Shown piece after piece: positions 22,465 to 49,289 of a stretch of 64,000 nucleotides of DNA (positions are counted from its first letter, which is position 1; the number at the start of each line of letters is the position of its first letter). This stretch comes from Comamonas sp. GTDB taxonomy: Bacteria > Pseudomonadota > Gammaproteobacteria > Burkholderiales > Burkholderiaceae_C. The position numbers were made by a program, and so were the translations under genes. The stretch is from assembly GCA_015478895.1 (NCBI GenBank), contig JADMKK010000024.1:37803-101802 (forward strand). The letters run 5' to 3'. The notes below the pieces were generated by a model. It saw only the letters and a program-made list of their open reading frames with translations, ran no database searches and had not been told where the DNA came from.

Positions 22465-22497
22465 CCGTATCAGGCCTGAAGAGGCCTGTTAAAAAAT

Positions 22498-22577: not shown

Positions 22578-22585
22578 GAATAGCT

Positions 22586-24046: not shown

Positions 24047-24048
24047 GC

Positions 24049-24462: not shown

Positions 24463-24568
24463 GGCGTATTCAATGGAAAATATAGGCCTGAATATACGCA
24501 AGCGGGAACGCTGGCTCATCAAGTATTTAGGCGGTCGCGTGAATTTAATCGAACAGCGAGAGGTTCTG

Positions 24569-24991: not shown

Positions 24992-25004
24992 GCCTCGATA
25001 GCGG

Positions 25005-27386: not shown

Positions 27387-27471
27387 TGGTGCCGCCTTTC
27401 ACTTTCAATATGGCCACGCAGGGCATGCGTATGCTGCCTATCAAAGAGGTGATTCGTGCAAGAGAGGGTAT

Positions 27472-28659: not shown

Positions 28660-29102
28660 GCGTTATTTCCAAAACAAAAATTGCCAAAGAAGTTTGGGTA
28701 CTCGCCGGAGTCGCGGTGCTCGGTGCGGCCTGTATTTGGCCGCTGCAGCGCCTGCAAACATTGCCTGCAAAACATACAGCGCTGGATCAGCAACTGATGC
28801 AAGTGCAAGCCATGGCCGCCCAGGCGCAGCAGTTGCGAGCGCTGCAGTCTGCCCCATTGGGTAATGGTGTGGAGTTGTTGCAGATGGCCGTTTCCAGCAC
28901 GCTGGGCACGGCTGCGACCGTTACTTTTGCAGGGGACGCGGCAACGCTGGTGCTCAATCAGGTGGAGCCTGCCAATTTGGCGCGCGGCCTGGAGGTCATG
29001 CGGCAAAACACTGCAGCGCGTTTTACTTCGGCCAAGCTCGATATTCGGGCAGAGCAAATCAGTGGTCGCTTAGAGCTGCAATTGCCAGCTGGCCAGCCAT
29101 GA
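28656..29102 (+). CDS. gspM: T2SS protein M
   Basis: N-terminal TM, coiled coil, position after gspL. Confidence 0.82.
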   Translation: MSVISKTKIAKEVWVLAGVAVLGAACIWPLQRLQTLPAKHTALDQQLMQVQAMAAQAQQLRALQSAPLGNGVELLQMAVSSTLGTAATVTFAGDAATLVLNQVEPANLARGLEVMRQNTAARFTSAKLDIRAEQISGRLELQLPAGQP

Positions 29103-32112: not shown

Positions 32113-32120
32113 GGCCACCC

Positions 32121-33476: not shown

Positions 33477-33478
33477 CG

Positions 33479-34702
33479 ATGGCCGGCTTTAGCTACGAAG
33501 CGCTGGATGCGCAGGGCCAGACCCAAAAAGGCACGCTGGACGCCGACTCCGCCAAAGCCGCCCGGTCTTTCTTGCGCCACCAAGGGCTGGTGCCTTTGGT
33601 GGTGCAAGAAAGCAAGCACACTGCCAAACGCCAGCAGGCATCTTGGCAATGGGTGCGGCCACGGCCAGCGCTCGCGAAAGCTGAGCTGGCGGTGTGGACA
33701 CGCCAGCTCGCCTCTTTGATGCAGGCCGGTTTGACCATTGAACGCGCCTTGCAAAGCCTCGGTGATGAAACCCAGCAACCGGCCTTGGTGGCGCTGATGG
33801 CCGATGTGCTGGCGCAAGTCAAAAGCGGTAACTCGTTCTCTCAGGCATTGGCACAGCACCCCGCCGAGTTTGATTCGGTGTATTGCGCCGTGGTGAGTGC
33901 CGGTGAGCGCAGCGGCAGTTTGGCGGTGGTGCTCACCAGTCTGGCCGATGATCTGGAAGCGGCGCAACTGCTCAAAAGCAAGATTCTGGGCGCTGCTTTG
34001 TACCCCTTGATTGTCAGCGCCATTGCGGTGCTGATCGTGGTGTTCCTGATGGTCTATGTGCTGCCCCAAGTGGCGGACACGTTTTCCAGCTCCAAGCGCA
34101 GCCTGCCGGTGTTAACCACGGTGATGTTGTGGATCAGTGCGCAACTGAGTCAATGGTGGTGGCTACTGCTGGCCTTGATTGTGTTGGGGGCGGGCAGTGC
34201 CAAACTGGCTTTGCGCCAGCCTGCGTTGCGCCTACGTTGGCATGCGTGGCTCACGCAAGCCCCGGTGCTGGGCAAACTGCTGCGCAACTACAACGCTGCG
34301 CGCTTTTCCAGCACTTTGGGGATGTTGGGCAGCGCGGGGGTGCCCATTTTGCAGGCGCTCAAGGCAGCCACGCAGACCGTGGGCAATCAGGCTATGAAGC
34401 AAGACCTAGAAGACGTCACTCGCATGGTGCGCGAAGGCGCACCACTGGGGCTTGCACTGGCACAAAAACCGCGCTTTCCGAAGCTGGTCAGCACCTTTGC
34501 ACGCTTGGGCGGGGAGACGGGCAACCTCGGCCCCATGCTGCTGCGTGTGGGCAAGCAGCTGTCTGATCAGGTGCAGCGCACCGCCTTGCAACTGGCTTCC
34601 GTGCTGGAGCCGCTGCTGATTCTGAGCATGGGTGTGGTCGTACTCATGATCGTGCTGGCGGTGCTGATGCCCATCATCGAGCTCAATAGCTTTGTGAAGT
34701 GA
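33479..34702 (+). CDS. gspF: T2SS inner membrane protein F
   Basis: TRQLASL, GERSG, ALYP, GETG and EPLLIL repeats of the GspF/PilC family. Confidence 0.96.
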   Translation: MAGFSYEALDAQGQTQKGTLDADSAKAARSFLRHQGLVPLVVQESKHTAKRQQASWQWVRPRPALAKAELAVWTRQLASLMQAGLTIERALQSLGDETQQPALVALMADVLAQVKSGNSFSQALAQHPAEFDSVYCAVVSAGERSGSLAVVLTSLADDLEAAQLLKSKILGAALYPLIVSAIAVLIVVFLMVYVLPQVADTFSSSKRSLPVLTTVMLWISAQLSQWWWLLLALIVLGAGSAKLALRQPALRLRWHAWLTQAPVLGKLLRNYNAARFSSTLGMLGSAGVPILQALKAATQTVGNQAMKQDLEDVTRMVREGAPLGLALAQKPRFPKLVSTFARLGGETGNLGPMLLRVGKQLSDQVQRTALQLASVLEPLLILSMGVVVLMIVLAVLMPIIELNSFVK

Positions 34703-35810
34703 GGGTGTGGGCTTGCAGCAGGCCCTTGGCACTGTGCGGTTCGCAGCGCAGGTACTGGGGGGCGATCTGCATGCTTGCACCCAGTTGGCGCGCGGCTTCC
34801 CACGGCCAGCGCGGGTTGTAGAGCATGGCCCGGGCGACGCCAATGGCATCAGCCTGCTCTGCATCCAGAATGGCTTGCGCTTGCTGGGGCTCGGTAATCA
34901 GGCCCACGGCAATCACCGGCATGCTGCCGTTCAAGGCCTTGCGCAATGCAGCGGCCAACGGCACTTGGTAGCCGGGGCCAACCGGGATCTGCTGCGCAGG
35001 GTGTAAAGCTGCGCTGGAGACATGCAAAAACGCACAAGCGCGTGCGGCCAGGGCGTGGGCCAGCACGGTGCTTTGTTCCACATCCCAGCCGCCTTCCACC
35101 CAGTCAGTGGCAGAAATGCGCACGCCGATGGGGAAATCTGCCGGTAAGGCGGCGCGCATGGCATCCAGCACTTCCAAGGTCAGGCGCATGCGGTTTTCCA
35201 GACTGCCACCATAGGCGTCGCTGCGGAGATTGGACAGCGGTGACAAAAACTGGTGCAGCAAATAGCCGTGTGCAGCATGCAGTTCAATCGCATCAAAACC
35301 CAGTTGGTGGGCCCGCACGGCGGCATCCACAAAGGCCTGGCGAATCTCTGCGATGTCTTGCAGCGTGGCGCTGTGCGGTGTTGGGTCGGTGGGCAAATAG
35401 CCCTGCGCACTGGCGCTGATCGTGGACCATGCCTGCGAGTGATTGGCGGCCATGGCACCCCCGCCTTCCCAAGGGCGCAGGCTGCTGGCTTTGCGGCCTG
35501 CATGCGCCAGCTGGATGCCCAGTGGCATGGGGCTGTACTGGCGAATGTGCGCCAGCACGGGCTGCAAGGCCTGGGCCTGGGCATCACTCCACAGCCCCAA
35601 GTCATAAGCGCTGATACGCCCGCGTGCTTCGACGGCGGTGGCTTCAAAAATCAAAAGTCCGGCGCCTGATTGCGCCAGGTTGCCGTAGTGCATGGTGTGC
35701 CAGCTGGTGGCGCAACCATCTTGTGCAGAGTACATGCACATGGGCGGAATGACGATGCGATTGCTCAGGGCGAGGCGGCCCAGATGAACGGGTGAAAACA
35801 ATGTGGACAT
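34683..35810 (-). CDS. NADH:flavin oxidoreductase (old yellow enzyme family)
   Basis: PPMCMYS, QLAHAGRK, ELHAAHGYLLHQFLSP, NLRSDAYGGSLENR. Confidence 0.95.
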   Translation of the reverse strand: MSTLFSPVHLGRLALSNRIVIPPMCMYSAQDGCATSWHTMHYGNLAQSGAGLLIFEATAVEARGRISAYDLGLWSDAQAQALQPVLAHIRQYSPMPLGIQLAHAGRKASSLRPWEGGGAMAANHSQAWSTISASAQGYLPTDPTPHSATLQDIAEIRQAFVDAAVRAHQLGFDAIELHAAHGYLLHQFLSPLSNLRSDAYGGSLENRMRLTLEVLDAMRAALPADFPIGVRISATDWVEGGWDVEQSTVLAHALAARACAFLHVSSAALHPAQQIPVGPGYQVPLAAALRKALNGSMPVIAVGLITEPQQAQAILDAEQADAIGVARAMLYNPRWPWEAARQLGASMQIAPQYLRCEPHSAKGLLQAHTLTSQSY

Positions 35811-35944: not shown

Positions 35945-36024
35945 ATAGCTGCTGGCCCTTAAAGAAAAAGGGTTGCAGATAGATAACTATCTGAAAACGT
36001 TTATAGATAACGGCAAGCTGCTAT
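35945..36024. repeat. 80-bp palindromic element, copy 3
   Basis: ATAGCTGCTGGCCC...ACGGCAAGCTGCTAT ends; inner CAGATAG/CTATCTG. Confidence 0.8.
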
Positions 36025-36030
36025 AAAAAT

Positions 36031-36114
36031 TTAGTCTTGCGGGCGGAAACCGGTCAGGAAGTCGGGCGGCACCTTGCCATTGGTGTCGCGCGGCAAGGTA
36101 TCGGTGGTGTGCAG
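36031..36114 (-). pseudogene. tolA: Displaced 3' fragment of tolA (27 codons plus stop)
   Basis: LHTTDTLPRDTNGKVPPDFLTGFRPQD versus intact TolA end LHKTDTLPRDTNGKVPSEFLIGFRPQD. Confidence 0.9.
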
Positions 36115-36257
36115 TGTTGAGCCCGCTCGACGAAGCAGCAGGTACTGATGCCGTGGGTTTTTAGATTTGATATTTTTGCAACTTTTCAGGACTAAATGGC
36201 GCTTCGTGAAAAGTGTGCACTGTTGAAAATTCAAATCATAAATTCAAGGAGACATCA

Positions 36258-37259
36258 ATGGCTGACAACACATTCGTTAAGACATCGCTTTCAAGACGCA
36301 GTTGGGTCTTGGGTGGTCTGGCATTCGGAACTTCTTTGGGTTGGGGCCTCCCCCTCGCAACTGCCCAAGCACGTGCCTTGAAGCTCATCATTCCTTACAC
36401 CCCGGGTGGTTCCACTGATATTGCGGGCCGCATTTTTGCGCAAGCGGTTGGGCAGGAGATGGGCGTAACCATCGTGCCTGAAAACAAGGGCGGCGCTGCC
36501 GGTCTGATCGGCATGCAAGAAGTCGTGCGCTCTAAAGCGGATGGGACCGTGTTTGGTGTCAGCGGAATCGGCACCACGGCGCTGGTCGCGGTGACTCAGA
36601 AAAATCCACCCTATGATTTCCAGCGTGACTTGGAGGCGGTCGGCCACTTGGGTGCTTTTGGCAGCTTGGTGCTCACCCGTGCTAGCAGTCCATTTCAGAC
36701 CTTGCAGGAGATGGTGGCACACGCCAAGAAAAATCCTGAGTCGCTGTCCTTTGGTACGCCGCCCAATGGATCTCCCAGTTATTTGACGCTGAAGTATTTG
36801 CAGGATGCTGCAGGCATCCGAATCCTTGATGTGCCCTACAAGGGGCACACCGAGATTCTGAATGGTGTGCTGTCCGGAGAAATTGATCTCGGCATCGTGT
36901 CAGTACCCCAAGCGCAGGAACTGGTCAAGAACAAGAAACTCAAAGCGTTGGCCGTGACCAGTGCCAAGCGCTCCAATAGCGTGCCAGAAGTCCCTACGGT
37001 GGCTGAGTCGGGCTACCCCGGGTTTGAAGCCACATTGTGGAATCTCATCGTGTGTCGCAAGGGCACTGACCGCGAATTACTGCAACGCATGAATGCGGCC
37101 ATCAACAAGGCCATGGCACATCCAGACGTGCAAAAGCAGCTGCATCTGCAAAGCATTGAATTTGAGCCCTTTACGCTCCAACAAACCCAGGCTTTTGTCG
37201 CGGCAGAAACGCAGAAGTGGGAACGTATCGCCAAGCTGGTGAACCTCAAACCTGTTTGA
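36258..37259 (+). CDS. Tripartite tricarboxylate transporter substrate-binding protein (Bug/TctC)
   Basis: IIPYTPGGSTD, ENKGGAAG, VPYKG, VPTVAESG; twin-Arg-like SRRSW leader. Confidence 0.93.
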   Translation: MADNTFVKTSLSRRSWVLGGLAFGTSLGWGLPLATAQARALKLIIPYTPGGSTDIAGRIFAQAVGQEMGVTIVPENKGGAAGLIGMQEVVRSKADGTVFGVSGIGTTALVAVTQKNPPYDFQRDLEAVGHLGAFGSLVLTRASSPFQTLQEMVAHAKKNPESLSFGTPPNGSPSYLTLKYLQDAAGIRILDVPYKGHTEILNGVLSGEIDLGIVSVPQAQELVKNKKLKALAVTSAKRSNSVPEVPTVAESGYPGFEATLWNLIVCRKGTDRELLQRMNAAINKAMAHPDVQKQLHLQSIEFEPFTLQQTQAFVAAETQKWERIAKLVNLKPV

Positions 37260-37272
37260 GTGAATATGCACT

Positions 37273-37668
37273 ATGACTAAAAAAATTGAAGCCTCACCAC
37301 TGGGCACCTACCGTGCTTATTTGCAAAAGGAGCAACTGGCCTATCAGTACAGCCCTGAAGCAGGCCGTGCGGTGTTTTTTCCGCGCCTGGTGTGCCCCTT
37401 TTCTGGCAGTACTCACTTGGAGTGGCGCGTGAGCAAGGGCTTGGGAGAGGTGCACGCAAGCACCGTGGTCTACCCCAAGGATGCGCAGCCCTACAACGTG
37501 GCACTGATTGAGCTCGATGAGGGTTTTCGCATGATGAGCCGTGTCGAGGATATGGACCCGCACAACGTGAAGATTGGCCAGCGCGTGCGTGTGCGGTTTG
37601 TTGTAGAGGCTGGTGCGCCTGCACCTTTGCCTGTCTTTGTGCCCCAAGAGGAAGAAAACAATGACTAA
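37273..37668 (+). CDS. DUF35 / OB-fold protein (ChsH2-C-like) with degenerate Zn ribbon
   Basis: FPRLVCP, LEW, GEV-x-x-STVV, YNVALIELDEGFRMMSRV; precedes the thiolase-like gene. Confidence 0.9.
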   Translation: MTKKIEASPLGTYRAYLQKEQLAYQYSPEAGRAVFFPRLVCPFSGSTHLEWRVSKGLGEVHASTVVYPKDAQPYNVALIELDEGFRMMSRVEDMDPHNVKIGQRVRVRFVVEAGAPAPLPVFVPQEEENND

Positions 37669-38812
37669 TCGACGTGGCAGTGTCGCCATTGTGGGAGTCG
37701 CGGAGTCAGACCTGGGTGAAGTTGCGCAGGGCATGACGCCAGTGGATCTGATGGCGCAAGGAATGGTGCGTGCGCTGGATGATTGTGGCCTGCAACTCAA
37801 GGATGTCGACGGCTTGTTTGGTGCCGCGACACAAAGTCGCATGGTCACTCTGGCCTTGCGTGAGTATTTGGGTATTCAGCCACGTTATGGCGATTCCACT
37901 TATTTGGGTGGTTCGTCGTTCATGACCCATGTTGCCCATGCGCAGGCTGCCATTCAGGCGGGCTTGTGTGAAGTGGCTGTCATCACCTATGGCAGTACCC
38001 AGCGAAGTGATGGTCGCTCTGCGACGGGTGGCAGGGAGACCAATCCTTATGAAACGCCCTATAAGCCGTTCATGCCCTCTACGGCTTATGCATTGGCCGC
38101 ATCCCAGCACATGCACAAATACGGCACAACCCGTGAGCAGCTCGCAGAAATTGCAGTGGCTGCCCGGCAGTGGGCGTTGCTCAATCCGGCAGCTTGGGAG
38201 AAAAAACCGCTGACAGTGGAGGATGTCCTCAATTCTCGAATGATCAGTTACCCACTCACTGTACGTGACTGCTGTCTGGTCACTGACGGGGGTGGTGCGA
38301 TTGTGCTGACCTCTGCTGAGCGTGCAAAAGATCTGAAAAAACCTGCGGCCTATGTATTGGGTTGTGGTGAGTCGTACAGCCATCAGTCGATCTCCAATAT
38401 GGCGAATTTGACGGTCACGGCGGCCAAGCAGTCGGGGGAAAAGGCTTATGCCATGGCAGGCCTGGGGCCCAGAGATGTCAATGTGCGCGAGCTGTATGAC
38501 GCATTCACACTGACCACGCTGCTGTTTCTGGAAGACCTGGGTTTTTGCCAGAAAGGTGAGGGAGGGATTTTTGTCGCAGATGGCAAGTTGCGTCCTGGCG
38601 GTGCAATGCCGACCAACACCAATGGCGGGGGACTTTCCTATTGCCATCCTGGCATGTACGGCCTCTTTTTGCTGATCGAAGCCACGCGGCAGGTTCGCGG
38701 TGAATGCAATGCACGCCAGGTGGCTGGCTGCGATGTCGCTTTGGCACATGGCAACGGCGGGGTTTTGTCCAGCCAGAGCACTGTCATTTTGGGTAGCGCA
38801 GCTACGTTGTAA
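37661..38812 (+). CDS. Thiolase-fold protein lacking catalytic cysteines (Ltp2/SCP2-like)
   Basis: DCCLVTDGGGA, ELYDAFT, NTNGGGLSYCHPG, EATRQVRG. Confidence 0.9.
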   Translation: MTNRRGSVAIVGVAESDLGEVAQGMTPVDLMAQGMVRALDDCGLQLKDVDGLFGAATQSRMVTLALREYLGIQPRYGDSTYLGGSSFMTHVAHAQAAIQAGLCEVAVITYGSTQRSDGRSATGGRETNPYETPYKPFMPSTAYALAASQHMHKYGTTREQLAEIAVAARQWALLNPAAWEKKPLTVEDVLNSRMISYPLTVRDCCLVTDGGGAIVLTSAERAKDLKKPAAYVLGCGESYSHQSISNMANLTVTAAKQSGEKAYAMAGLGPRDVNVRELYDAFTLTTLLFLEDLGFCQKGEGGIFVADGKLRPGGAMPTNTNGGGLSYCHPGMYGLFLLIEATRQVRGECNARQVAGCDVALAHGNGGVLSSQSTVILGSAATL

Positions 38813-38861
38813 AAATTAAGGCCGCACTGCTGCGGCTTTTCAATTGCTTGTAAAGAAGAAC

Positions 38862-39998
38862 ATGGACGAAACCGAAGTCATGCTGGCGGATGCCGCGGAG
38901 GTCATGCTCAAGGATCGCCACGACAAAGAGCGTCTGCGTCAGGTATATCAAGGACGCAACGCCTATAGCCGTGCGTTGTGGCGTGAAATGGCAGAACAGG
39001 GGTGGCTGGCCATCAGCTTGTCCGAAGAGCTGGGTGGATCGGGGCTTTTGTCTCGCCATGCGGCAGTGATTGCCAAGGCCCTGGGTCAGCACGTGGTGCC
39101 AGAACCTTTTGTGAGCAGCGCAGCGATGGTGGCCTGTTTGGCTAATCATCTGCAGGTACAAAACGCTGCAGCTTGGCAACCCATCATTGAGAGCTTGCTC
39201 AGTGGCGACACCTGGGTCGCGCCCGCATGGCAAGAGTTTGCAAATACGGCTGGCGTAGCACCGACGCTGCAAGCGCAGCCAGGTGCGGCTGGCACGGTGC
39301 GTTTGCAGGGTGTCAAGCAAGCCGTCATTGCTGCGGACATGGCAGATCACTTGCTGGTAACGGCTTTCGACGGCACACAGGTTCAACTGTGGAGCGTCCC
39401 CTCCAGTGCGCCAGGTGTGGCGCTAGAAACTACTCTGGGCAGCGATGGCAGCAGTGTGGCGCGAGTGTCTTTCTCCCAAGTCGAAGTGGCACCTGCGCAA
39501 TGCTTAGGGCGCGGCGACGCGGTATTGCAAGCCTTGCTGCAAGCCCACGAGCTAGCGCTGGTGCTGACCAGCGCTCAACTTCAAGGAGTTGCTGAGCAGG
39601 CCTTGTACTTGACCGTGGAATACATGCGCACACGCCAGCAGTTTGGTAAGGCCATTGGAAGTTTTCAGAGCTTGCAACACTTGGCTGTGGATGCACGGGT
39701 TCAGCAGGCCCTTGGGCAAGCAGCCCTGAATGCAGCATTGCGCGATTTGGACGGACAGACCAGTACAACCACTGTGCGTAGCACCGTCGCGCGGGCCAAG
39801 GCGCGAACTGCGCACGCAGCACAAATGGCGGGGCGTTTTGGCGTGCAAGCCCATGGTGCTATTGGCTTTGCTGCCGAAGCAGACATTGGCTTGTATCTGA
39901 AATCTGCTTTGCGCCTGTCGGCCTACTTGGGCAATAGCAGCCACCAACGTCAACACGTCGCACAAGAACTTTTCGCGCAAGCACAGGTGTCCGCATGA
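38862..39998 (+). CDS. Acyl-CoA dehydrogenase family protein (probable non-catalytic-type subunit)
   Basis: RQQFGKAIGSFQSLQH, QAHGAIGF; short, degenerate C-terminus. Confidence 0.9.
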   Translation: MDETEVMLADAAEVMLKDRHDKERLRQVYQGRNAYSRALWREMAEQGWLAISLSEELGGSGLLSRHAAVIAKALGQHVVPEPFVSSAAMVACLANHLQVQNAAAWQPIIESLLSGDTWVAPAWQEFANTAGVAPTLQAQPGAAGTVRLQGVKQAVIAADMADHLLVTAFDGTQVQLWSVPSSAPGVALETTLGSDGSSVARVSFSQVEVAPAQCLGRGDAVLQALLQAHELALVLTSAQLQGVAEQALYLTVEYMRTRQQFGKAIGSFQSLQHLAVDARVQQALGQAALNAALRDLDGQTSTTTVRSTVARAKARTAHAAQMAGRFGVQAHGAIGFAAEADIGLYLKSALRLSAYLGNSSHQRQHVAQELFAQAQVSA

Positions 39999-41155
39999 GT
40001 CAGCAGTTTGATTTCAACCGTCTTAACAACGAAGAGTTTCGCCGTCGCTGGTCGAGCTGGATTGCGCAAAATTATCCCTCTGAGCTGCGCAATCCACTCA
40101 AGCGACTGACTGGGGATGAGGCACGCCAATGGTTGCGTGCGCAGTTGCGGGATGGTTGGCGTGCGCCTAGCCTGCCCCGGGATTTCGGTGGAATGGGCCT
40201 GAGCCTAGACAAACAACTGATCTACCAAGAAGAGCTGGAAACCTATGGCGTGGCGCGCCCGATTGACCACGGCCTGCGTTTATTGGCGCCGGTGTTGCTC
40301 AAGTATGGAACGGCCGAACAGAAGGCCACTTATCTGCCCCGCATTCTGAATTGTGAGGACATGTGGTGCCAAGGCTATTCCGAGCCTAACGCGGGTTCTG
40401 ATCTGGCCAACCTGAAAACCAGTGCAGTGGTCGATGGTGACGACTTTGTAGTCAATGGTCAGAAGATCTGGACCACCTTGGCAACCGATGCCAGCAAAAT
40501 TTTTATGCTGGTTCGCACCAGTACGGAAGGCAAGAAGCAGCAAGGCATGACCTTTTTGCTGGCAGACCTGGATACACCCGGCATCAAGATTCGCCCCATC
40601 CGCACCCTGGCTGGCGATGAGCATTTTTGTGAGATTTTCTTTGATGACGTGCGTGTGCCTCGTGCCAATGTTGTCGGGCAGGTGGGTGATGGCTGGACGG
40701 TGGGTAAGGCATTGCTGGGGTTTGAGCGTTTTAGCCATGGTTCACCAGAACTGATTCGCTATGCCTTGGGCGTGCTGCATCAAGCAGGTGATGTGATGGG
40801 GTTGTCTCACCAGCAAAGTTTCCAGCAATTGCTGGGCGGGTTCGAGTGCGATGTGGCCGATGCCGGTGCGCTGTATGAGCAGGTATGTGAAGTCGCTTTG
40901 TCAGGAGGCAATGCCGATGATGATTTCTCAATGCTCAAACTCTTTAACAGCGAGACTTTGCAGCGCATTGCCGAGGCGTGTACCGAGGTCGTCAATCAGT
41001 ACGGCGGACTGATGGGTGAAGAGGCTATCCCTGGCCTGGGCACCGACCTTGAGTGGCTCTACATGATCACGCGCCCCGTCACCATTTTTGGCGGAACAGC
41101 ACAGGTGCAGCGTAATTTGCTGGCGGCCCGCACGCTAGGGTTGCCCAAATCCTAA
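39995..41155 (+). CDS. Acyl-CoA dehydrogenase family protein
   Basis: WCQGYSEPNAGSDLA, NGQKIWTT, LGFER, TIFGGT; overlaps the upstream ACAD by ATGA. Confidence 0.93.
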   Translation: MSQQFDFNRLNNEEFRRRWSSWIAQNYPSELRNPLKRLTGDEARQWLRAQLRDGWRAPSLPRDFGGMGLSLDKQLIYQEELETYGVARPIDHGLRLLAPVLLKYGTAEQKATYLPRILNCEDMWCQGYSEPNAGSDLANLKTSAVVDGDDFVVNGQKIWTTLATDASKIFMLVRTSTEGKKQQGMTFLLADLDTPGIKIRPIRTLAGDEHFCEIFFDDVRVPRANVVGQVGDGWTVGKALLGFERFSHGSPELIRYALGVLHQAGDVMGLSHQQSFQQLLGGFECDVADAGALYEQVCEVALSGGNADDDFSMLKLFNSETLQRIAEACTEVVNQYGGLMGEEAIPGLGTDLEWLYMITRPVTIFGGTAQVQRNLLAARTLGLPKS

Positions 41156-41245
41156 GTGAACAGAGGCTGTAGCCACTGCGCTGCAGTCCATTCTTTTTTG
41201 TCTTCAAGCACAGACACTGTGCCCCTATTGGACCGAGCTTGCCCC

Positions 41246-43342
41246 ATGACATACCAGTCTCTTGATCCTTTGTTTTCCCCGGCATCCATTGCCGTGATTG
41301 GCGCCTCTTCTGACCCGCGCAAGATTGGCGGACGTCCCATTGCCTATATGTTGCGCAGTGGTTATGCCGGCAAAATTTTGCCGATTAACCCCAAACAGTC
41401 TGAAATTCAGGGGTTGCCAGCTTTCGCCTCTTTGGCGGCTGTGGGCCATCCTGTGGACCAAGTGATCGTGGCAGTGTCCGGAGCCTTGGTAGAAGGCGCG
41501 GTAGAAGAAGCACTGGCGCAGCAGGCGCGCTCGATTGTGATTTTCAGCTCCGGGTTCGGCGAAGTCGGACATGAAGGCAAGCAAAAGCAGGAGGAGCTGG
41601 CGCGTCGCTGTGCTGATGCAGGTGTGCAATTGGTTGGCCCCAATTGCATCGGCATTTTCAGCACCCGTAATGCCATGTATTCCACCTTCATGAGCGCTTT
41701 AGAGCACGAAATGTTTGAGCCTGGCAATGTGGGTATCGTGAGCCAGAGTGGTGCTATTGGCTCTTACCTCTACGGCCTGGCAGGTGACCGTGGTGTGCGT
41801 TTCAGCCACTTTGTGGCAACGGGCAATGAAGCTGGTGTGGACGTAGCGGCCTGCATCGAGTGGATGGCACACGATCCCAATACCAAGGTGATCTTGGCCT
41901 ATCTGGAAGGTTGTCAAGATGGCTACCGGCTGCGCAATGCCTTAGAGACTGCACGCCAGCAACGCAAGCCCGTGGTGGTCATGAAAGTCGGCGCGTCTGA
42001 GCAAGGTGCTGCAGCTGCCGCCTCTCACACAGGGTCACTGGCAGGCGCTGATGTGGTGTTTGACAGCGTTTTTAAGGAGTGCGGTGCTTGGCGCGCTCAG
42101 ACCATGGAAGAGCTGGTGGATATTGCCTATGCCTGTTCTATCTCCGTGCTGCCCCATGGCAATCGACTGGGCGTTATCACGCCATCGGGTGGGATTGGTG
42201 TCATTGCTGCTGACGAGTGTGAGCGCAGTGGTCTGGTGCTGCCGCATTTGCCAGAGAAGTTGCAGGCAGAGATCAAGTCCATCGTGCCGTTTGCCAGTGG
42301 TGTGAACCCGGTCGACACGACCGGACAGGTTGTTAGCGATCGTCAGCTCTTCAACAAGATCATGAAGATCGTGTTTGAGTTCGACGGCTTTGACAGCATT
42401 CTGAGTTTTAACGCCAACATTGGAAAAACAGAGATTGAGTGGGGCAAGGTGCGGGATGATCTGCTGGCGTTACGTCGCCAGCACCCCGAGAAATTGGTGG
42501 CGCTGAGCATGCGTTCTGCTCCCGAAGTGGTGAAGGAACTGGAAGATCACCAGATCCTTTACTTTTCGGATACGGCCGTGGCGACGCGCACCATCGGTGC
42601 CTTGGCATGGATTGCTCAGGCCCAGCAGTGGCCCGCCATGTCCGTGCCTGCCGCTGCACCTGCCCAGGCTGCGCTGCAATGGTCCGAAGCGGCCATTGAT
42701 GAAGCGCAGGCGCGCCAGATTTTGGAGGTAGCTGGCATTCCTTTTGCCCCGCAGAAAGTGGTCGACAGTGCCCAGGCTGCGGCCCAGGCGGCTGCAGAAA
42801 TGGGCTTTCCCGTGGTGATCAAGGTGCTGTCGCCGGACATTGCTCATAAGAGCGATGTAGGTGGCGTGCTGCTGAATCTGGCTACGGAACAAGAGGTGTT
42901 GGAGGGCTGGAAACGCATGATGGACCAGGTGCACAGCCATTGTCCGGATGCACGTCTGCAAGGCGCGGTCGTGTCGCCGATGATCAAAGGTGGCACGGAA
43001 ACTGTATTGGGCATGGTCAATGACCCCGTCTTTGGCCCCATGGTCATGTTTGGTCTGGGCGGTATCTTTGTAGAAATTTTCAAGGATGTGAAGTTCCACA
43101 CTGCGCCGCTGAACATGGCCCAAGCCCAGACAATGATCAGCTCCATCAAGGGCTTTCCTTTGCTCGACGGCGCGCGTGGCAAACCAAAAGCCGATGTGCA
43201 TTGCCTGGCCCAGGCGCTGGTCAGCCTGTCTAACTTTGTATTTGACAATGCCGCCGACTTGGCCAGCGTAGAAATCAATCCTTTTATCGCCTTGCCGCAG
43301 GGCGGTTACGCCGTGGACGCGCTGATTATTCGTCGCAGCTAA
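41246..43342 (+). CDS. ADP-forming acyl-CoA synthetase (acetate-CoA ligase family, fused subunits)
   Basis: IAVIGAS CoA-binding domain, GPNCIG, ASHTGSLAG (phospho-His), HKSDVGGV ATP-grasp, EINP. Confidence 0.93.
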   Translation: MTYQSLDPLFSPASIAVIGASSDPRKIGGRPIAYMLRSGYAGKILPINPKQSEIQGLPAFASLAAVGHPVDQVIVAVSGALVEGAVEEALAQQARSIVIFSSGFGEVGHEGKQKQEELARRCADAGVQLVGPNCIGIFSTRNAMYSTFMSALEHEMFEPGNVGIVSQSGAIGSYLYGLAGDRGVRFSHFVATGNEAGVDVAACIEWMAHDPNTKVILAYLEGCQDGYRLRNALETARQQRKPVVVMKVGASEQGAAAAASHTGSLAGADVVFDSVFKECGAWRAQTMEELVDIAYACSISVLPHGNRLGVITPSGGIGVIAADECERSGLVLPHLPEKLQAEIKSIVPFASGVNPVDTTGQVVSDRQLFNKIMKIVFEFDGFDSILSFNANIGKTEIEWGKVRDDLLALRRQHPEKLVALSMRSAPEVVKELEDHQILYFSDTAVATRTIGALAWIAQAQQWPAMSVPAAAPAQAALQWSEAAIDEAQARQILEVAGIPFAPQKVVDSAQAAAQAAAEMGFPVVIKVLSPDIAHKSDVGGVLLNLATEQEVLEGWKRMMDQVHSHCPDARLQGAVVSPMIKGGTETVLGMVNDPVFGPMVMFGLGGIFVEIFKDVKFHTAPLNMAQAQTMISSIKGFPLLDGARGKPKADVHCLAQALVSLSNFVFDNAADLASVEINPFIALPQGGYAVDALIIRRS

Positions 43343-43389
43343 CGTGCAGCGGTGCAGAAGGCCTCCTGGCCGATGACACCGCTTCCATC

Positions 43390-43426
43390 AACAAAAAGGG
43401 CACTTTCTGAGAGTGCCCTTTTTGTT
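43390..43426. terminator. Bidirectional terminator inside the island
   Basis: AACAAAAAGGGCACT...AGTGCCCTTTTTGTT between convergent genes. Confidence 0.88.
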
Positions 43427-43465
43427 GCGTGCAAATGTCGAGGAACTAAATGCTTGGCCGCTACT

Positions 43466-44326
43466 TTAAGCGGCAGGGGCAATCGTGGCCCATCCGTTGT
43501 CCAGAACCTTGGCACCACGTTCTTGTGCAAATGCACGAAAGGCGATGCCGTCGCCTTCATGCCACGTCTCAAATTGCAATGTTTCTCCGGGAAAAACGCT
43601 GGCAGAAAAACGTGTATCCAGCGACAGCAGACGCTGCGGGGCGTAATCCAGCCAGCCTTTTAACAACGCACGTGCAGCCATGCCGTAGGTGCACAGACCA
43701 TGCAGTGGTGGTTGTGTGAAACCCGCTTTGTGTGCCACGGCTGGGTCCACATGCAAGGGGTTACGGTCCACATTCAAGCGATACAGCAATGCGGCACATG
43801 CTGAGGTTGGCAGGGTAATGATTTGATCTGCGGGCCGTGTGGGCAAGGCCTTGAGCGTCAGCGTTTCGCCGAAGGAGCCACAGCCACCATCGGCTCTGCA
43901 AAACGAAGAGTGCCGGATGGTAATAAACAGCGTGCCGTCTTCGCCAACGAGCTGGCGCTCAAGATGCAAGATTGCCCCTTTTTCGCTGCCCTTGTCCTGA
44001 ATGCCAATGACGCGTGCCTTGGAGACTAGGTAGCCATTGGCAGGCAGCGGCTGATGGAACTGCATGCGTTGCTCGCCATGCACCACCTTACTGCGAGTTG
44101 CGCCCGTGCGCGGGTCTGTCAGCCAGGCACCGGGATGGCACAGCACGGCACCCATGGTGGGAACCGCGCGCAATTGTTGCTCATAAACAAAAGGCAGCTC
44201 CTGCTCGTTCAGTGGATCAGCACCAAAGCCCAGGCTCAACGCGTACAGCATGACATCTTTGTCAAGGTACACCGTGCGGACCTCTGGGAACTCCCAATTT
44301 TTCAGGTTTTCAATATGCAGTGGCAT
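43466..44326 (-). CDS. MaoC double-hot-dog (R)-specific enoyl-CoA hydratase
   Basis: VVHGEQ, YRLNVDRNPLHVDP hydratase-2 motif, PPLHGLCTYG. Confidence 0.92.
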   Translation of the reverse strand: MPLHIENLKNWEFPEVRTVYLDKDVMLYALSLGFGADPLNEQELPFVYEQQLRAVPTMGAVLCHPGAWLTDPRTGATRSKVVHGEQRMQFHQPLPANGYLVSKARVIGIQDKGSEKGAILHLERQLVGEDGTLFITIRHSSFCRADGGCGSFGETLTLKALPTRPADQIITLPTSACAALLYRLNVDRNPLHVDPAVAHKAGFTQPPLHGLCTYGMAARALLKGWLDYAPQRLLSLDTRFSASVFPGETLQFETWHEGDGIAFRAFAQERGAKVLDNGWATIAPAA

Positions 44327-44383
44327 CGTCGTAAAGCGCAAAAAGGCCTGTACAGGCCTTTGGTGGATGGAAGGGAGAAAGAA

Positions 44384-45307
44384 TTAAATGGCTTCCCAGG
44401 AAATCACATCCTTGGTGCGCTCCAGGGGCGTCAAACTGTTCTTGAATGCATTCGGGAGCGTCTGTGCAATTGAGTCCACCGACCAGCCTTCACTGCGGTG
44501 CAAAGTGCGTGTGGGGCGGGGTTGGTTGTAGAGGTAAATTTCATTGCCGCGTGCGCCAAAAATCTGACCGCTGATGGTTTTTGCTGCGTCAGCGCACAAA
44601 AAGGCCGCCAGCGGTGCAATCTGCTCGGGGCGTGTGCTCTGGCGGCGTTTTTCCAGGTATTTTTCTTGCTCTTGCGGCGACAGACCTGGCACGCTTTCGA
44701 TCATGCGGCTGAATGCATGGGGGGCAATGCAATTGGAGCGCACGCCAAAACGTGCCATGTCCATCGCCATGGAGCGCGACAGTCCCACAATGCCCATTTT
44801 GGCTGCGGCATAGTTCGCCTGACCAATGCCACCGATTAATCCGGAGGTCGACGTCATATGTACCAACGCACCTGCGCCTTGTTCACGGAAATGCACTGCG
44901 GCTGCACGGCTCATATTGAACGCGCCATACAAATGCACTTTGATGACGGAGTCGAAATCACTGGGTGTCATCTTGTGAAAAATCGAATCCCGCAAAATGC
45001 CAGCGCTGTTGACTACGGCATCCACGCGGCCAAATGCTGTGATGGCAGCGGCAATGATGGCTTCTGCGCTGTCCCACTCGGAGACGCTGAGCGTGTTGGC
45101 GATGGCTTTACCGCCAAAAGCGGTGATCTCATTGACCACTTCTTGCGCAGCAGACAGTTTTTCCTGCTCGCCATTGAGCGAAACACCCAGGTCATTGACA
45201 ACCACCTGCGCGCCTTCTTTGGCCAGCTCAATGGCTACGCTGCGGCCAACGCCGCCGCCAGCACCGGTAACGACGACAACTTTGTCTTGGAGAGATGGAG
45301 TGTTCAT
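44384..45307 (-). CDS. SDR oxidoreductase (MFE-2-like 3-hydroxyacyl-CoA dehydrogenase type)
   Basis: TGAGGGVG, VVVNDLG, NSAGILRD, YAAAK catalytic motif. Confidence 0.93.
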   Translation of the reverse strand: MNTPSLQDKVVVVTGAGGGVGRSVAIELAKEGAQVVVNDLGVSLNGEQEKLSAAQEVVNEITAFGGKAIANTLSVSEWDSAEAIIAAAITAFGRVDAVVNSAGILRDSIFHKMTPSDFDSVIKVHLYGAFNMSRAAAVHFREQGAGALVHMTSTSGLIGGIGQANYAAAKMGIVGLSRSMAMDMARFGVRSNCIAPHAFSRMIESVPGLSPQEQEKYLEKRRQSTRPEQIAPLAAFLCADAAKTISGQIFGARGNEIYLYNQPRPTRTLHRSEGWSVDSIAQTLPNAFKNSLTPLERTKDVISWEAI

Positions 45308-45464
45308 ATCTTATGGAGTAAGTGCGAATGAAAGCTTCACGCCAGTGGCGCTGTGTGAGGCCATTCTTGCGTTTCGCTGACCCGGGCATGCAGCGAAAAA
45401 GTCATAATGCTTTACAAAAAATCAATTCTTGAAGCCCATCGCGCAGACCGGAGTACCCCTCACC

Positions 45465-46355
45465 ATGAAGATGCCGCCCCTTAATCCACTGCACGTGTTT
45501 TCCATCGTGGCGCGGCACCAAAGCCTGCTGACTGCGGCGCAGGTTCTGGGGGTGACACAGTCCGCAGTCAGACGCCAGATTTCATCGTTGGAAGATTATT
45601 ACGGCTGCAAACTTTTCAAAAGAAAACGATACGGTTTAGAAGTTTTACCTTTTGCGCAAGACTTGGCGAAAGAAGTGGCGGGGGCATTTGAATTAATTGA
45701 GCAGCAATCAGAAAAATTAAAAAAATCGCTAGAAAAAAATATCAATGAAGTCACTATTAAAACTTACACAAGTTTTGCTGGTAACTGGTTGATTCCTAAT
45801 CTCAGTGAGTTTTTTGCCTTGCATCCTGAAATAAAAATCGTAATTAAAACTGGAGCCAAGCCCATTGATTTTCGAGAAAATGAGGGTGATATTTCTATTC
45901 AAATCATTAATCATGATAAAAATGGCTATCAATCGACACTTTTGTTTGAGGATACTATTGAGCCTGTGTGTTCACCAGAATTTCTCAAGAAATATGCTCC
46001 CAATCCCAAGTACCCATCGTCCATACTAAGACAGCCTGTCATTACGACGGATTATCGAGATTTTGACTGGAACACCTGGGTCGATCAATGTGGCTATCAA
46101 GAAGACTTTAAACCAGACAGAAGTTTGAATCTTGGTAATGCTTTGCTGGCTTGGGATGCAGCTGCCAATGGTATTGGTGTGGCCATGGGGCAAACCATAC
46201 TGTTAAAAGAGAAAATTAAAAATAACAGATTAACTACGCCATTTAATTTGCCTGTGAAAACAGGTATGAAATACTATGTCATTTTGCCTGAGAAAAATGC
46301 GAAGGCTGGGGCATTGATTTTCAAGGAATGGTTATTGAAGAAGTTTTTGTTTTAA
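45465..46355 (+). CDS. LysR-family regulator (GcvA-like), AT-rich
   Basis: HTH LGVTQSAVRRQISSLE, LFKR, WLIPNLSEF; divergent from the SDR gene. Confidence 0.92.
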   Translation: MKMPPLNPLHVFSIVARHQSLLTAAQVLGVTQSAVRRQISSLEDYYGCKLFKRKRYGLEVLPFAQDLAKEVAGAFELIEQQSEKLKKSLEKNINEVTIKTYTSFAGNWLIPNLSEFFALHPEIKIVIKTGAKPIDFRENEGDISIQIINHDKNGYQSTLLFEDTIEPVCSPEFLKKYAPNPKYPSSILRQPVITTDYRDFDWNTWVDQCGYQEDFKPDRSLNLGNALLAWDAAANGIGVAMGQTILLKEKIKNNRLTTPFNLPVKTGMKYYVILPEKNAKAGALIFKEWLLKKFLF

Positions 46356-46430
46356 TGTGGAATAAATTTACTGTATTTAAATGATATGTTGGTTAAAAGC
46401 TTTGGCTGAGGTAGAAAAAATAAAAAATTC

Positions 46431-46510
46431 ATAGCAGCATGCCGTTAAAGAAAAAGGGTTTCAGATACTTATCTATCTGAAACCCTTGATACGTGCCGGC
46501 AAGCCGCTAT
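46431..46510. repeat. 80-bp palindromic element, copy 4
   Basis: ATAGCAGCATGCCG...CCGGCAAGCCGCTAT ends; inner AGGGTTTCAGATA/TATCTGAAACCCT. Confidence 0.8.
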
Positions 46511-46600
46511 AAAAGTTTAGTCTTGTGGGCGGAAACCGATCAGGAACTCGGATGGCACCTTGCCATTGGTGTCGCGTGGCAAGGTATCGGTTTTGTGCAG
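46431..46600. repeat. 170-bp direct repeat, right copy (80-bp element copy 4 plus functional tolA 3' end)
   Basis: Aligns without gaps to 35945..36114. Confidence 0.95.
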
Positions 46601-47656
46601 CGCGCGCACCACGGCGTCGTCCCAGGCTTTGTTGCCGCTCGATTGCACCAGCTGCACGCCGGTGATCGTGCCATCGGGCGCAGCGCGCACGCGCACTTCA
46701 GCCCGCGGGTTGCCGCTGACCATGTCGGGGTAGACGATGTTGGGCTTGACCTTGGCCGCCACTTTGGCGCCGTAGCCGGCAGAGTGGCCCGCTGTGCCGC
46801 CGCCTGTGCCCTTGCCACCGTTGGGGCCGCTGCTTTTTTCAGCAGAACCGGTTCCGCCAGAACCAGCCTGAGCAGCCATGTTCTTCAGGTTTTCCTGGCG
46901 CATGCGCTCCAGTTCCTTGGCGGCCTTGGCATCTTTGGCGGCTTGTTCTTTCTTGCGTTTGTCGTCCGCAGCTTTCTTTTCTGCAGCCAGCTTGGCGGCT
47001 TTTTCTTTCTCCAGCTTCTCTTTTTCGCGTTTTTCCTTCTCGGCTTTTTCGCGCTTTTCTTTTTCTAAGCGGTCTTTCTTCTGCTGCTCCGCTTTGTCGC
47101 GCTTTTGTTGCTCCAGCTTGTCTTTGCGTTCCTGCTCGGCCTTGTCCTTGCGCGCTTGTTCAGCCTTTTCTTTTTCGAGCTTGGATTGCTCCGCTTTTTC
47201 CGCTTTTTCTCGCTCGGCCTTTTCTTTGGCTTTTTGCGCGGCAAGCTCGCGCTGCTTTTGCTCGGCTTCCTGCTTTTTGCGTTCTTGCAAAGCAATTTCG
47301 GCATCACGCTCAGCTTGCAGTTCTTGCTGCGAAGGCTGGGGTGGAGCCGGTGGTGGCGGCAAGGGGACGGGTTCCGGTTCTGGTTCGGGCTCCGGTGTCG
47401 GCTCCGGCTCCGGTATGGGCTCTGGTTCTGGGGCGGGCTGGGGCACTGGCACAGCCGCGCGCGGTGCCGCCTGCACAAAGGTGTCGCTCCACAGCTCCGC
47501 TTCGACAGCGGCCTGCTCGACGGCCACGGGTGGACTGACTTTCCACATGAAAGCGCCTACCAGCACGGCGTGAGCCAGCAGTGCCAGCACCCAGTTGCGC
47601 AGACGCTTGGACGGGCGGGGCGGGGCAAAGGGGTCTTGGTCTAGGCGAGAGTGCAT
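46517..47656 (-). CDS. tolA: Tol-Pal protein TolA
   Basis: N-terminal TM with HAVL, PEPEP tract, Lys/Glu/Ala helix, TonB-C-like domain (SSGNKAWDDAV). Confidence 0.93.
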   Translation of the reverse strand: MHSRLDQDPFAPPRPSKRLRNWVLALLAHAVLVGAFMWKVSPPVAVEQAAVEAELWSDTFVQAAPRAAVPVPQPAPEPEPIPEPEPTPEPEPEPEPVPLPPPPAPPQPSQQELQAERDAEIALQERKKQEAEQKQRELAAQKAKEKAEREKAEKAEQSKLEKEKAEQARKDKAEQERKDKLEQQKRDKAEQQKKDRLEKEKREKAEKEKREKEKLEKEKAAKLAAEKKAADDKRKKEQAAKDAKAAKELERMRQENLKNMAAQAGSGGTGSAEKSSGPNGGKGTGGGTAGHSAGYGAKVAAKVKPNIVYPDMVSGNPRAEVRVRAAPDGTITGVQLVQSSGNKAWDDAVVRALHKTDTLPRDTNGKVPSEFLIGFRPQD

Positions 47657-47709
47657 GGGGGCAAGAGAAAGCGAGGCGCAGTCAAAAAAATAGTGGGACA
47701 GAACAACGT

Positions 47710-48132
47710 TTACTTGGCGCCAGATTTCACGCCCAGTGCCACACGCACTTCTGCCGCCTGCAATGCCGCCATGGCTTGCACCACAGATTCATACTGCAGT
47801 GTCTTGTCGGCAAGAATTTGCACGGCAGTGTGCTCAGGGTTGCTGCTTTTCCAAGACTTTGCGACGCCTTGAAGTTCGTCCAGCGAAATTTTCTGCTCGC
47901 TGTTTTGCGTTTTGAAGGTGTGGCTGCCGTCCTTGTCTAGCAGGACGTAGGCAATGTTCTTGGCCGCAGGCTTGGACGATTTACCAGCCGTGGGCACATC
48001 AATATTGCCCGGTGTGAGCATGGGCGCTGTCACCATGAAGATGATCAGCAGCACCAGCATCACATCGATGAAGGGCACCATATTGATTTCGTTGACGGTG
48101 CGGCGGCCGCGGCCGCGTGAGCTGACTGCCAT
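47710..48132 (-). CDS. tolR: TolR/ExbD
   Basis: EINMVPFIDVMLVLLIIFMVTAP. Confidence 0.93.
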   Translation of the reverse strand: MAVSSRGRGRRTVNEINMVPFIDVMLVLLIIFMVTAPMLTPGNIDVPTAGKSSKPAAKNIAYVLLDKDGSHTFKTQNSEQKISLDELQGVAKSWKSSNPEHTAVQILADKTLQYESVVQAMAALQAAEVRVALGVKSGAK

Positions 48133-48147
48133 GTGCTGCTTCCTGCT

Positions 48148-48864
48148 TTAGTAGCCCGAGGGCGTTGCGCTGGCACTGGCGGCCGGGCCACTGACATTGC
48201 GTTGCAAGATGTTGGTGAACTCTTCCATGAAGGTCTCTTGGTTGCTGGCAATGCGGTCAATGCTGTTGGCATAACGGTTGTAGGCAGCCACGGCAGGGAT
48301 CGCTGCAAACAGGCCCATGGCCGTAGCCACCAGCGCTTCCGCAATACCGGGGGCTACCGTAGCCAGCGTGACTTGCTCCATGTTGGCAAAGCCGGTAAAG
48401 GCGTGCATCACCCCCCAGACGGTGCCAAACAGGCCGATGTAGGGCGTGATGGAGCCTACAGTTCCAAGGAATGACAGGCCAGATTCAATCTCATCCATCT
48501 CGCGTTGAAAACTGGCGCGCATGGCGCGGCGCGTGCCGTCCAGCAACGTGCCGCCTTCGGTGATGCGGCGCTCACGCAGCTTTTTGTACTCACGCATGCC
48601 GCTGGCAAAAATGCGTTCCATGGGGCCGCCCTGCTTGGCGTTTTGTGTAGCGCTGGTATAGAGATCGTTCAAGCTGTTGCCCGACCAGAAATCTTGCTCA
48701 AACTGCTCGTTGAGGTGGCGCACGCGCTTGATGGCTTGCGCCTTGCGGAAAATGGTGGCCCAGCTTGCGACAGAGGCAACGATAAGGATCAACATGACCA
48801 GTTGAACCACCCAGCTGGCCTGCAAGATGAGGCTGAGGATGGACATGTCTTGGGCTGCGTTCAT
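48148..48864 (-). CDS. tolQ: TolQ
   Basis: PYIGLFGTVWG, APGIAEALVATAMGLFAAIPA. Confidence 0.95.
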   Translation of the reverse strand: MNAAQDMSILSLILQASWVVQLVMLILIVASVASWATIFRKAQAIKRVRHLNEQFEQDFWSGNSLNDLYTSATQNAKQGGPMERIFASGMREYKKLRERRITEGGTLLDGTRRAMRASFQREMDEIESGLSFLGTVGSITPYIGLFGTVWGVMHAFTGFANMEQVTLATVAPGIAEALVATAMGLFAAIPAVAAYNRYANSIDRIASNQETFMEEFTNILQRNVSGPAASASATPSGY

Positions 48865-49289
48865 GAGAGTTTTTCTACGATGGAGTTCGGAATACGGGCA
48901 GGGCGCATGGTGGTCGAATCGACCCAGCCGATGCGAATGCTGCCTTCACATAACAGTTTGGGTGCTTCATCGGATGACACAGGCTGCAAAAAAGCCTGCT
49001 GTGCAATCGTGATGGAAGCCCGGCCCGCAGATTGCAACACGGCAGTGACCTCAATCATGTCATCCAGACGCGCAGGATGCAGGTAGTTCAGTTCAGCGTG
49101 GGTCACCACGAACATGCCGCCCACTTCATCACGCAGCTTTTGCTGCGCTACGCCCACATTGCGCAGCCACTCGGTGCGTGCACGCTCAAAAAACTTGAGG
49201 TAGTTGGCGTAGAAGACGATGCCACCGGCGTCGGTGTCTTCCCAGTACACGCGAATGGGAAAGGAAAAAACCATCAAAGTTCCCTTCAA
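48861..49289 (-). CDS. ybgC: Tol-Pal-associated acyl-CoA thioesterase
   Basis: VYWEDTDAGGIVFYANYLKFFERAR; start may be 49274. Confidence 0.93.
   Translation of the reverse strand: MKGTLMVFSFPIRVYWEDTDAGGIVFYANYLKFFERARTEWLRNVGVAQQKLRDEVGGMFVVTHAELNYLHPARLDDMIEVTAVLQSAGRASITIAQQAFLQPVSSDEAPKLLCEGSIRIGWVDSTTMRPARIPNSIVEKLS

Follow-up and report, generated by a model that had tools for sequence, protein, structure and literature searches.

How did a regulated catabolic operon come to lie directly behind tolA, between two copies of the end of that gene? The arrangement is found in a stretch of a Comamonas sp. genome (64,000 nucleotides of contig JADMKK010000024.1; hereafter the window), in which a 170-bp direct repeat brackets a module of nine genes. 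We favor, with somewhat better than even confidence, a single old insertion, Campbell-type or duplicative, made by host recombination without a dedicated integrase and followed by decay of the left repeat copy (L) and occasional conversion between it and the right copy (R). An earlier sequence-only reading had described an integrase-less island at the tolA 3′ end, integrated as a circle that carried a relative's tolA end, and had set the duplicated end beside those left by islands at attachment (att) sites. The locus is laid out as follows, coordinates being those of the window.

46517 to 47656, minus strand: intact tolA, 379 amino acids, TIGR02794 above cutoff and PF13103; last gene of ybgC-tolQ-tolR-tolA (46517-49289)
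46431 to 46600, minus strand: right repeat R, the functional tolA end (46517-46600, 27 codons and stop) followed by an 86-bp nested palindrome
46428 to 46513, minus strand: palindrome of R, the predicted tolA intrinsic terminator; an outer stem around an inner 14-bp hairpin (46454-46487), then a T run
36115 to 46430, no single strand: inserted catabolic module (the island), 10,316 bp, nine genes; absent from the closest island-free relative (L008) and from all other relatives
35945 to 36114, minus strand: left repeat L, a stranded tolA 3′ fragment (36031-36114) followed by a decayed palindrome (35945-36030)

The two copies align without gaps over 170 bp with 25 mismatches (85.3% identity), exactly as first counted by hand. 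A BLAST search of the 64-kb window against itself returned the pair at E=1e-52 and no third copy, and beyond both repeat ends identity reaches background (16-32%) within 50 bp. Read on the minus strand, each copy holds 84 nt of tolA, made up of its last 27 codons and the stop, followed by an 86-bp element; the sequence-only reading was right about the duplicated tolA end and slightly off in its sizes (28 codons and 80 bp). R completes the intact gene, as had been proposed. Its product scores 143 bits against TIGR02794 (cutoff 59), and genes for ExbD/TolR, MotA/TolQ and a YbgC-type thioesterase lie upstream. L sits between divergent genes for an Old Yellow Enzyme-family oxidoreductase (OYE) and a TctC-family protein. 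The peptide it encodes, LHTTDTLPRDTNGKVPPDFLTGFRPQD, departs from that of R, LHKTDTLPRDTNGKVPSEFLIGFRPQD, at the four residues already noted for the stranded fragment (K3T, S17P, E18D and I21T); CACACCACCGATACC is an example of an L-specific sequence word. As a separate observation, the ybgC-tolQ-tolR-tolA unit (46517-49289, and likewise all tolA loci L003-L092) has no tolB-pal after it, tolA being last and having its own strong terminator. In E. coli, tolA is followed by tolB-pal. Elsewhere in the window, the longest ORF for thymidylate synthase (59195-60475) has 426 amino acids, of which the Pfam domain takes in only residues 165-426; the first 164, read from a GTG start, probably reflect an ORF called too long, with no true N-terminal addition to the protein.

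Could the duplication be a mis-join of the assembly at a repeated palindrome? The palindrome does belong to a dispersed family, and Logan unitigs break inside its copies. Against this, the two copies differ at 15% of sites, and independent metagenome assemblies from many studies cross both junctions: contigs L101, L102, L103 and X38 the left one and X36 the right one, while single contigs of ~10.5 kb in X1 and X7 run from repeat to repeat. The duplication is therefore not an assembly artefact; that explanation, which the earlier reading had already judged the less likely, is effectively refuted.

The relatives show that the module was inserted. Loci were retrieved with the C-terminal 86 amino acids of TolA and with OYE as queries, full-length TolA being swamped by its low-complexity Lys/Glu/Pro region. 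In L008, whose OYE is 88% identical at the amino acid level, the tolA stop is followed by the palindrome, ~130 bp, OYE and type II secretion system (T2SS) genes, which is the empty tolA-to-oxidoreductase junction that the sequence-only reading had called for. This uninterrupted order demonstrates that the cluster was inserted. More distant Comamonas have the order tolA-E-U32 peptidase-E′-hypothetical-OYE, where E is the palindrome, and the island is present in none of them.

34683 to 35810, minus strand: OYE, an Old Yellow Enzyme-family flavin mononucleotide oxidoreductase (PF00724); the native downstream neighbor of tolA in this lineage, directly after the palindrome in L008

The window thus reads as intact gene, repeat, cargo, repeat and native downstream DNA, an architecture expected as the product of one crossover with a circle carrying the 170-bp segment. 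Campbell-type integration of a circle through a single homologous crossover is familiar from suicide-plasmid integrants and F-prime-like intermediates, and the locus resembles such integrants in that the insert lies between direct copies of a shared segment and the proximal copy completes the gene. On the favored account, a complete LysR-regulated operon would have been inserted once, immediately behind tolA, in an ancestor of this Comamonas species, with duplication of 170 bp from tolA codon -27 to the base of the palindromic terminator. The event would have been a single reciprocal exchange between the chromosome and a circle that contained the segment, made by host recombination, whether homologous or RecA-independent, in place of a dedicated integrase. 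Duplicative insertion at a break beside the palindrome could have given the same product by another route. Thereafter R would have been kept under selection and L, without function, would have decayed, short patches being exchanged between them by gene conversion.

What the island carries bears on its origin. Pfam and NCBIfam assign a metabolic, transport or regulatory role to each of its nine open reading frames (ORFs), in keeping with the earlier view that these 10.3 kb hold only catabolic and regulatory genes.

36258 to 37259, plus strand: TctC-family periplasmic carboxylate-binding protein (PF03401, E=5.5e-56; gene call from L001/L100)
37273 to 37668, plus strand: OB-fold (ChsH2_C/DUF35-type) partner of the thiolase-like protein (PF01796)
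37661 to 38812, plus strand: thiolase-like protein of SCP-x/lipid-transfer type (PF22691; NF004811 607 bits, above cutoff)
38862 to 39998 and 39995 to 41155, plus strand: two adjacent acyl-coenzyme A (CoA) dehydrogenases (ACAD), a PimD/PimC-like pair of small and large subunits (Pfam ACAD domains)
41246 to 43342, plus strand: ADP-forming acyl-CoA synthetase of the acetate-CoA ligase family (PF13549, PF13607, PF13380)
43466 to 44326, minus strand: two-domain MaoC-type (R-specific) enoyl-CoA hydratase (PF01575, PF22622)
44384 to 45307, minus strand: short-chain dehydrogenase/reductase (SDR)-family dehydrogenase of 3-hydroxyacyl-CoA / 3-oxoacyl reductase type (PF00106, PF13561)
45465 to 46355, plus strand: LysR-family regulator, divergent from the SDR-MaoC pair (PF00126, PF03466; 40% G+C)

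From these assignments the module is predicted to be a self-contained, LysR-regulated unit that takes up a carboxylate, activates it with CoA and passes it through one R-specific round of beta-oxidation. The best NCBIfam models for the acyl-CoA dehydrogenases, pimC_large (236 bits, cutoff 624) and pimD_small (142 bits, cutoff 653), are both sub-threshold; judged by these scores the pair appears related, not equivalent, to PimC/PimD, and the cluster does not classify at equivalog level as one for Pim-type dicarboxylate beta-oxidation. No integrase, transposase or transfer gene was found in the island by Pfam and NCBIfam on the nine ORFs, between which the intergenic gaps are short, and no integrase or transposase among the flanking ORFs tested; the window contains no tRNA gene. 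The island is integrase-less, as the sequence-only reading had it. Insertion by an insertion sequence (IS) or composite transposon was considered and rejected: no transposase domain is present, and the duplication is 170 bp long, not a short target duplication.

A chromosomal counterpart exists elsewhere. A Variovorax metagenome-assembled genome (L093) holds the same nine genes in the same order and orientation, and L098 part of them, at 58-87% amino acid and ~71% DNA identity to the island; the nearest homologues of the ADP-forming synthetase, 78-82% identical, are in other Burkholderiales. The L093 cluster has unrelated neighbors, with genes for RNase PH, HemN and TetR at one end and for a hydrolase and another LysR at the opposite end, and no piece of tolA accompanies the L093 or L098 cluster. 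Nine-gene synteny in an unrelated context without a tolA piece indicates a transplanted chromosomal operon rather than a dedicated mobile element, and megablast of the island against a plasmid collection gave no match. Compared with these clusters, the island appears to be cut almost exactly at regulon boundaries and to be of Comamonadaceae-type chromosomal origin.

The LysR gene has a composition of its own. Together with its 3′ flank (45330-46430) it is ~40% G+C, whereas the remaining eight genes of the island have 54-58% and tolA and OYE have 61-63%. It is the positional orthologue of the LysR genes in the Variovorax cluster (L093; 65% G+C) and in that of L098, with 58% amino acid identity. 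The low G+C despite orthologous position and identity suggests that the regulator, immediately next to the right repeat, was exchanged at a later time for one from a low-GC source.

How old is the duplication, and which copy is original? L and R differ at 25 of 170 sites, and they differ from L008 at 36 and 37 of ~170. Neither copy therefore matches the island-free relative, a comparison by which the earlier reading had hoped to tell them apart; the two are equidistant from it. They are each other's closest sequences in both the coding and the element part, and they share a compensated change of the inner stem relative to all outgroups, which places their split after that of the L008 lineage unless gene conversion has homogenized them. 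A site-by-site polarization of the 25 differences against outgroups is compatible both with a foreign incoming copy and with divergence in situ.

The same distances bear on the opposite polarity, namely that the ancestor shared with the L008 lineage already had the island and that a clean recombination of L with R later removed it from L008. Such recombination would restore exactly the L008 arrangement, and exchange between the copies does occur (see below). We regard this reading as very improbable, given that L and R are separated by a smaller distance than either is from L008, coding and element parts alike, and that all other relatives lack both island and fragment; it would in any case affect when the insertion took place, not what kind of event it was.

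The copies have since followed different fates. R, the promoter-proximal copy, still completes and terminates tolA and is under selection; all its specific coding differences are synonymous. L is a functionless, decaying relic. Among 89 TolA C-termini, not one has its residue T3 or T21 (0/89), and P17 is absent from the close clade. The hairpin of L, once at about -46 kcal/mol, has weakened to about -27, and a second L allele has lost the stop codon; moreover, the promoters on either side of L are divergent, a setting in which a terminator serves no purpose. Together with the mutual closeness of L and R, these changes look like decay and do not bear out the proposal that L came from a relative's tolA end. 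The second allele, on contig L102 and in run X38, carries T3 and P17 as in the L of the window along with ~17 further changes, among them P8S, V15E, P16Q and the lost stop codon. Derived states shared by the two alleles, followed by independent decay, point to one insertion and subsequent decay of the relic, not to repeated integration.

L and R still exchange short patches by gene conversion. The L102/X38 allele of L is R-like at 5-6 sites. Conversely, the R allele of L002 and of runs X1, X7, X10, X13 and X5 is L-like at three sites around the stop codon, so that a 35-nt stretch is common to both copies of the repeat and appears as a unitig at doubled depth. L002 was itself considered as an empty-site allele and rejected, contig depths showing it to be the R copy of island-bearing strains.

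Is the island still mobile? The host species was found in biogas, bovine, pig-gut and dairy metagenomes. Across 14 runs from at least nine studies, including runs chosen only for holding the flank, the island was present in 14/14 at flank-like depth, and no island-skipping joint of the species occurred in their assembled contigs, which drop rare forms. One apparent skipping joint, in X19, was rejected as an excision product: it is the divergent tolA end of another species, with only 28 nt on its shorter side. Between strains the island diverges by ~0.9%, the same as its flanks. Flank-like divergence and presence in all runs indicate that the island is fixed and old, and the current mobility implied by an att-site reading found no support here.

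These data weigh on a rival in which the two repeats serve as attL and attR and are acted on by a RecA-independent pathway or by an unlinked recombinase of the host, the island being mobilized in trans and still mobile at the tolA end or terminator. A small integrase-less island with long imperfect direct repeats has a parallel in the H47 island (PMC3191183, PMC5426353), strains carry different hybrid L/R alleles, and the inner hairpin, with 12-14-nt arms and a 6-nt spacer, has the geometry of a recombinase core site. The mosaic R (L002 type) and L (L102/X38 type) alleles are explained by ordinary gene conversion as well as by hybrid att formation. No empty-site strain and no skipping joint was seen in the 14 runs, no tolA-end duplication in other genomes (~90 tolA loci) and no dif-like Xer site; the derived changes common to both L alleles indicate one integration; and the hairpin and coding part of L are decaying, which is unexpected for a site in use. 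Trans-mobilization thus seems distinctly unlikely to us.

Nor did other genomes reveal tolA as a site used again. No stranded tolA coding fragment lies within 10 kb downstream in ~90 Comamonadaceae tolA loci, and full-text literature searches found no report of tolA as an island attachment site. Other cargo does occur there: at L021 10258-14421, and also in L027 and L028, ~4 kb encoding RtcB, an RF-1-domain (PrfH-like) protein, a TauE exporter and a LysR regulator separate tolA from U32, with no flanking duplication and no recombinase. In the sampled diversity, tolA is not a recurrent att site, contrary to what the sequence-only reading had led one to look for. A broader version of the idea, that the tolA palindrome and adjoining tolA end form a site at which an unlinked host recombinase or RecA-independent repeat recombination captures and releases operon-sized modules lacking mobility genes, strikes us as quite improbable. 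If true, the locus would be the chromosomal equivalent of the H47 island or of dif modules, and tolA a target not recorded before.

Strain variation in R bears on a further possibility, homology-facilitated illegitimate recombination. Here a related donor would already have carried the island directly behind its own tolA terminator; a homologous crossover of its incoming linear DNA within tolA, and illegitimate joining of the far end at recipient codon -27, would have left R as donor-derived and L as the displaced end of the recipient. R is fully functional (synonymous changes only, a compensated hairpin) yet as diverged from the outgroup as L, and L is contiguous with the native downstream sequence. 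In addition, L002-type strains differ from the window at two positions in ~1360 nt upstream, whereas most of 12 differences fall in the last ~120 nt of tolA; this clustering indicates that a recombination tract ends at the tolA 3′ end. The reading nevertheless requires a donor arrangement that was not observed, and so a separate earlier insertion; in the window, tolA has no stretch of donor-type divergence ahead of the repeat, and the distal boundary at the palindrome base is not predicted. On balance we hold it unlikely. The affected segment (L002 1440-1560, equal to 46502-46620 and covering the last ~120 nt of tolA) contains five private synonymous changes besides the three L-like sites, and L002-type strains are otherwise 99.85% identical in tolR-tolA.

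The favored account of a single insertion by host recombination has its own difficulties. No circular form, and no donor with island plus tolA fragment, was found, and the circular intermediate and its origin are hypothetical. Known Campbell integrants differ in this respect, and the 85% identity of the copies here, with 23 nt as the longest perfect block between L and R, is low for RecA and makes a poor substrate unless the copies were formerly much more alike and diverged later. R has changed about as much as L relative to the outgroup, more than expected for a constrained original, so that a diverged incoming copy may have been involved; gene conversion between the copies blurs what can be drawn from the distances. 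Finally, L102 1660-1830 (equal to 35945-36114) differs from the window at 22/170 sites but its flanks at 2/278, and plain neutral decay does not fully explain differences so concentrated in the repeat. Localized recombination, conversion from an unseen copy and hairpin-associated mutagenesis are possible causes of this tract. Of the integration model first put forward for this locus, the insertion and the architecture hold, the circle is hypothetical and the relative's tolA end has not stood up.

If host recombination made the insertion, what set its boundaries? The palindrome follows the tolA stop in essentially all Comamonadaceae tolA loci checked. That of R folds as RNA at -46.6 kcal/mol (z=-11) and is called as a terminator-like site on the minus strand; the L008 palindrome is about equal (-46.4 kcal/mol), while that of L reaches only -26.7 kcal/mol and no terminator is called. 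The 12-14-nt arms of the inner hairpin are perfect inverted repeats around the 6-nt spacer, with a T run after them. By these features the 86-bp element is probably the intrinsic terminator of tolA and a member of a low-copy family resembling repetitive extragenic palindromic (REP) elements. The distal end of the duplication lies ~3-5 bp from the palindrome base, which suggests that the hairpin set one of the breakpoints and fits the earlier idea of nucleation at the downstream element. The locus thus singles out the palindromic terminator behind tolA as a local rearrangement hotspot.

A Xer-dependent origin (an integrative mobile element exploiting Xer, IMEX, or a dif module) was considered and rejected: the window contains no dif-like 28-bp XerC/XerD site at up to three mismatches from the E. 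coli-type pattern, and the hairpin arms are terminator-like. The element resembles REP-type palindromes in its nested structure at gene 3′ ends, in having further copies in relatives and in breaking de Bruijn assemblies; it differs from them in low copy number (two in the 64-kb window), in having no associated transposase that we saw and in matching no Rfam family. Members of the dispersed, low-copy family have outer arms TATAGCnGC or GAGCTGCTAGCGC and an inner TTTCAGATAG-loop-CTATCTGAAA, and are found at L003 11124-11208 and 12678-12777, in L015, L016, L018 and L019, and at L014 265-286.

Among known systems the closest is the H47 island of E. coli (microcin H47), which spans 13 kb, lies between two repeats (148 and 144 bp) that are 76% identical, and encodes no recombinase (Azpiroz et al. 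2011, PMC3191183). Its excision and integration have been shown experimentally, are RecA-independent and yield hybrid att sites (PMC3191183; Azpiroz & Lavina 2017, PMC5426353). The tolA island is likewise small (10.3 versus 13 kb), has no integrase or excisionase, and is flanked by long imperfect direct repeats (170 bp at 85%); mosaic L and R alleles occur here, and in H47 hybrid variants arise by exchange within identity blocks. Unlike H47, whose att sequences are widespread in E. coli, it shows no sign of excision in contigs, no empty site was seen in its species, and no other genome was seen to use the tolA end in this way; its repeats are a gene end plus terminator, and one of them is decaying. 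Islands at tRNA genes or ssrA, dusA, guaA and prfC share with it insertion at a gene end, a gene kept intact through its duplicated end, bracketing direct repeats and an empty site in relatives; those with dusA integrases (PMC4482086) exemplify integrase-encoding islands that rebuild the end of their target. The tolA island departs from them in having no integrase, no recurrent use of its site and one ordinary chromosomal operon as cargo, and its repeats are far longer and more diverged than the att cores typical of integrase islands.

Seen against these systems, the locus represents a fairly ordinary gene gain without a dedicated integrase and reveals no new mechanism. Its value lies in being a clean and datable case of a whole regulated catabolic operon that moved between Comamonadaceae chromosomes without a mobility gene, with tolA, an essential-envelope gene, preserved by its duplicated end while the spare copy decayed. 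Integrase-less islands with long imperfect repeats form a small set, of which this is one more example. Practical use is mainly as a test bed, for excision and for the range of substrates that the pim-like cluster accepts.

Rearrangement behind tolA predates the arrival of the island, as seen from the genes that usually follow tolA in other Comamonas and that lie, in the window, beyond the OYE-T2SS block (21548 to 24046 together).

22586 to 24046, minus strand: U32 peptidase gene (tblastn against the L003 gene, 91% identity)
21548 to 22444, minus strand: hypothetical gene of ~300 amino acids (tblastn against the L003 gene, 83% identity)

By eye the second of these had looked ParB-like, a label dropped when Pfam gave no hit. 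The earlier rearrangement lends some plausibility to one last alternative, a tandem duplication, by unequal exchange, of a larger segment beginning at tolA codon -27, the content of whose first copy was later replaced by the catabolic cluster, since the position of OYE-T2SS between tolA and U32 in the window and L008 is most easily reached through duplication and loss. A duplication of this kind would by itself leave a stranded 3′ fragment. The scheme needs at least three events, and the island contains no duplicated OYE or T2SS remnant but is filled exactly by the nine-gene module; we consider it highly improbable. Neither a tolA fragment nor a palindrome was found upstream of U32 at its displaced position. 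Comamonas relatives have a second palindrome copy after U32, of which the window retains only a 20-nt remnant (22562-22581). In the window (21548-35810) and in L008, OYE and an ~11-kb type II secretion (gsp) cluster stand between tolA and U32, and other Comamonas have the order tolA-U32-hypothetical-OYE-DUF5610-aconitase. All orientations are preserved, so the change in the order of OYE-T2SS was a translocation and not an inversion.

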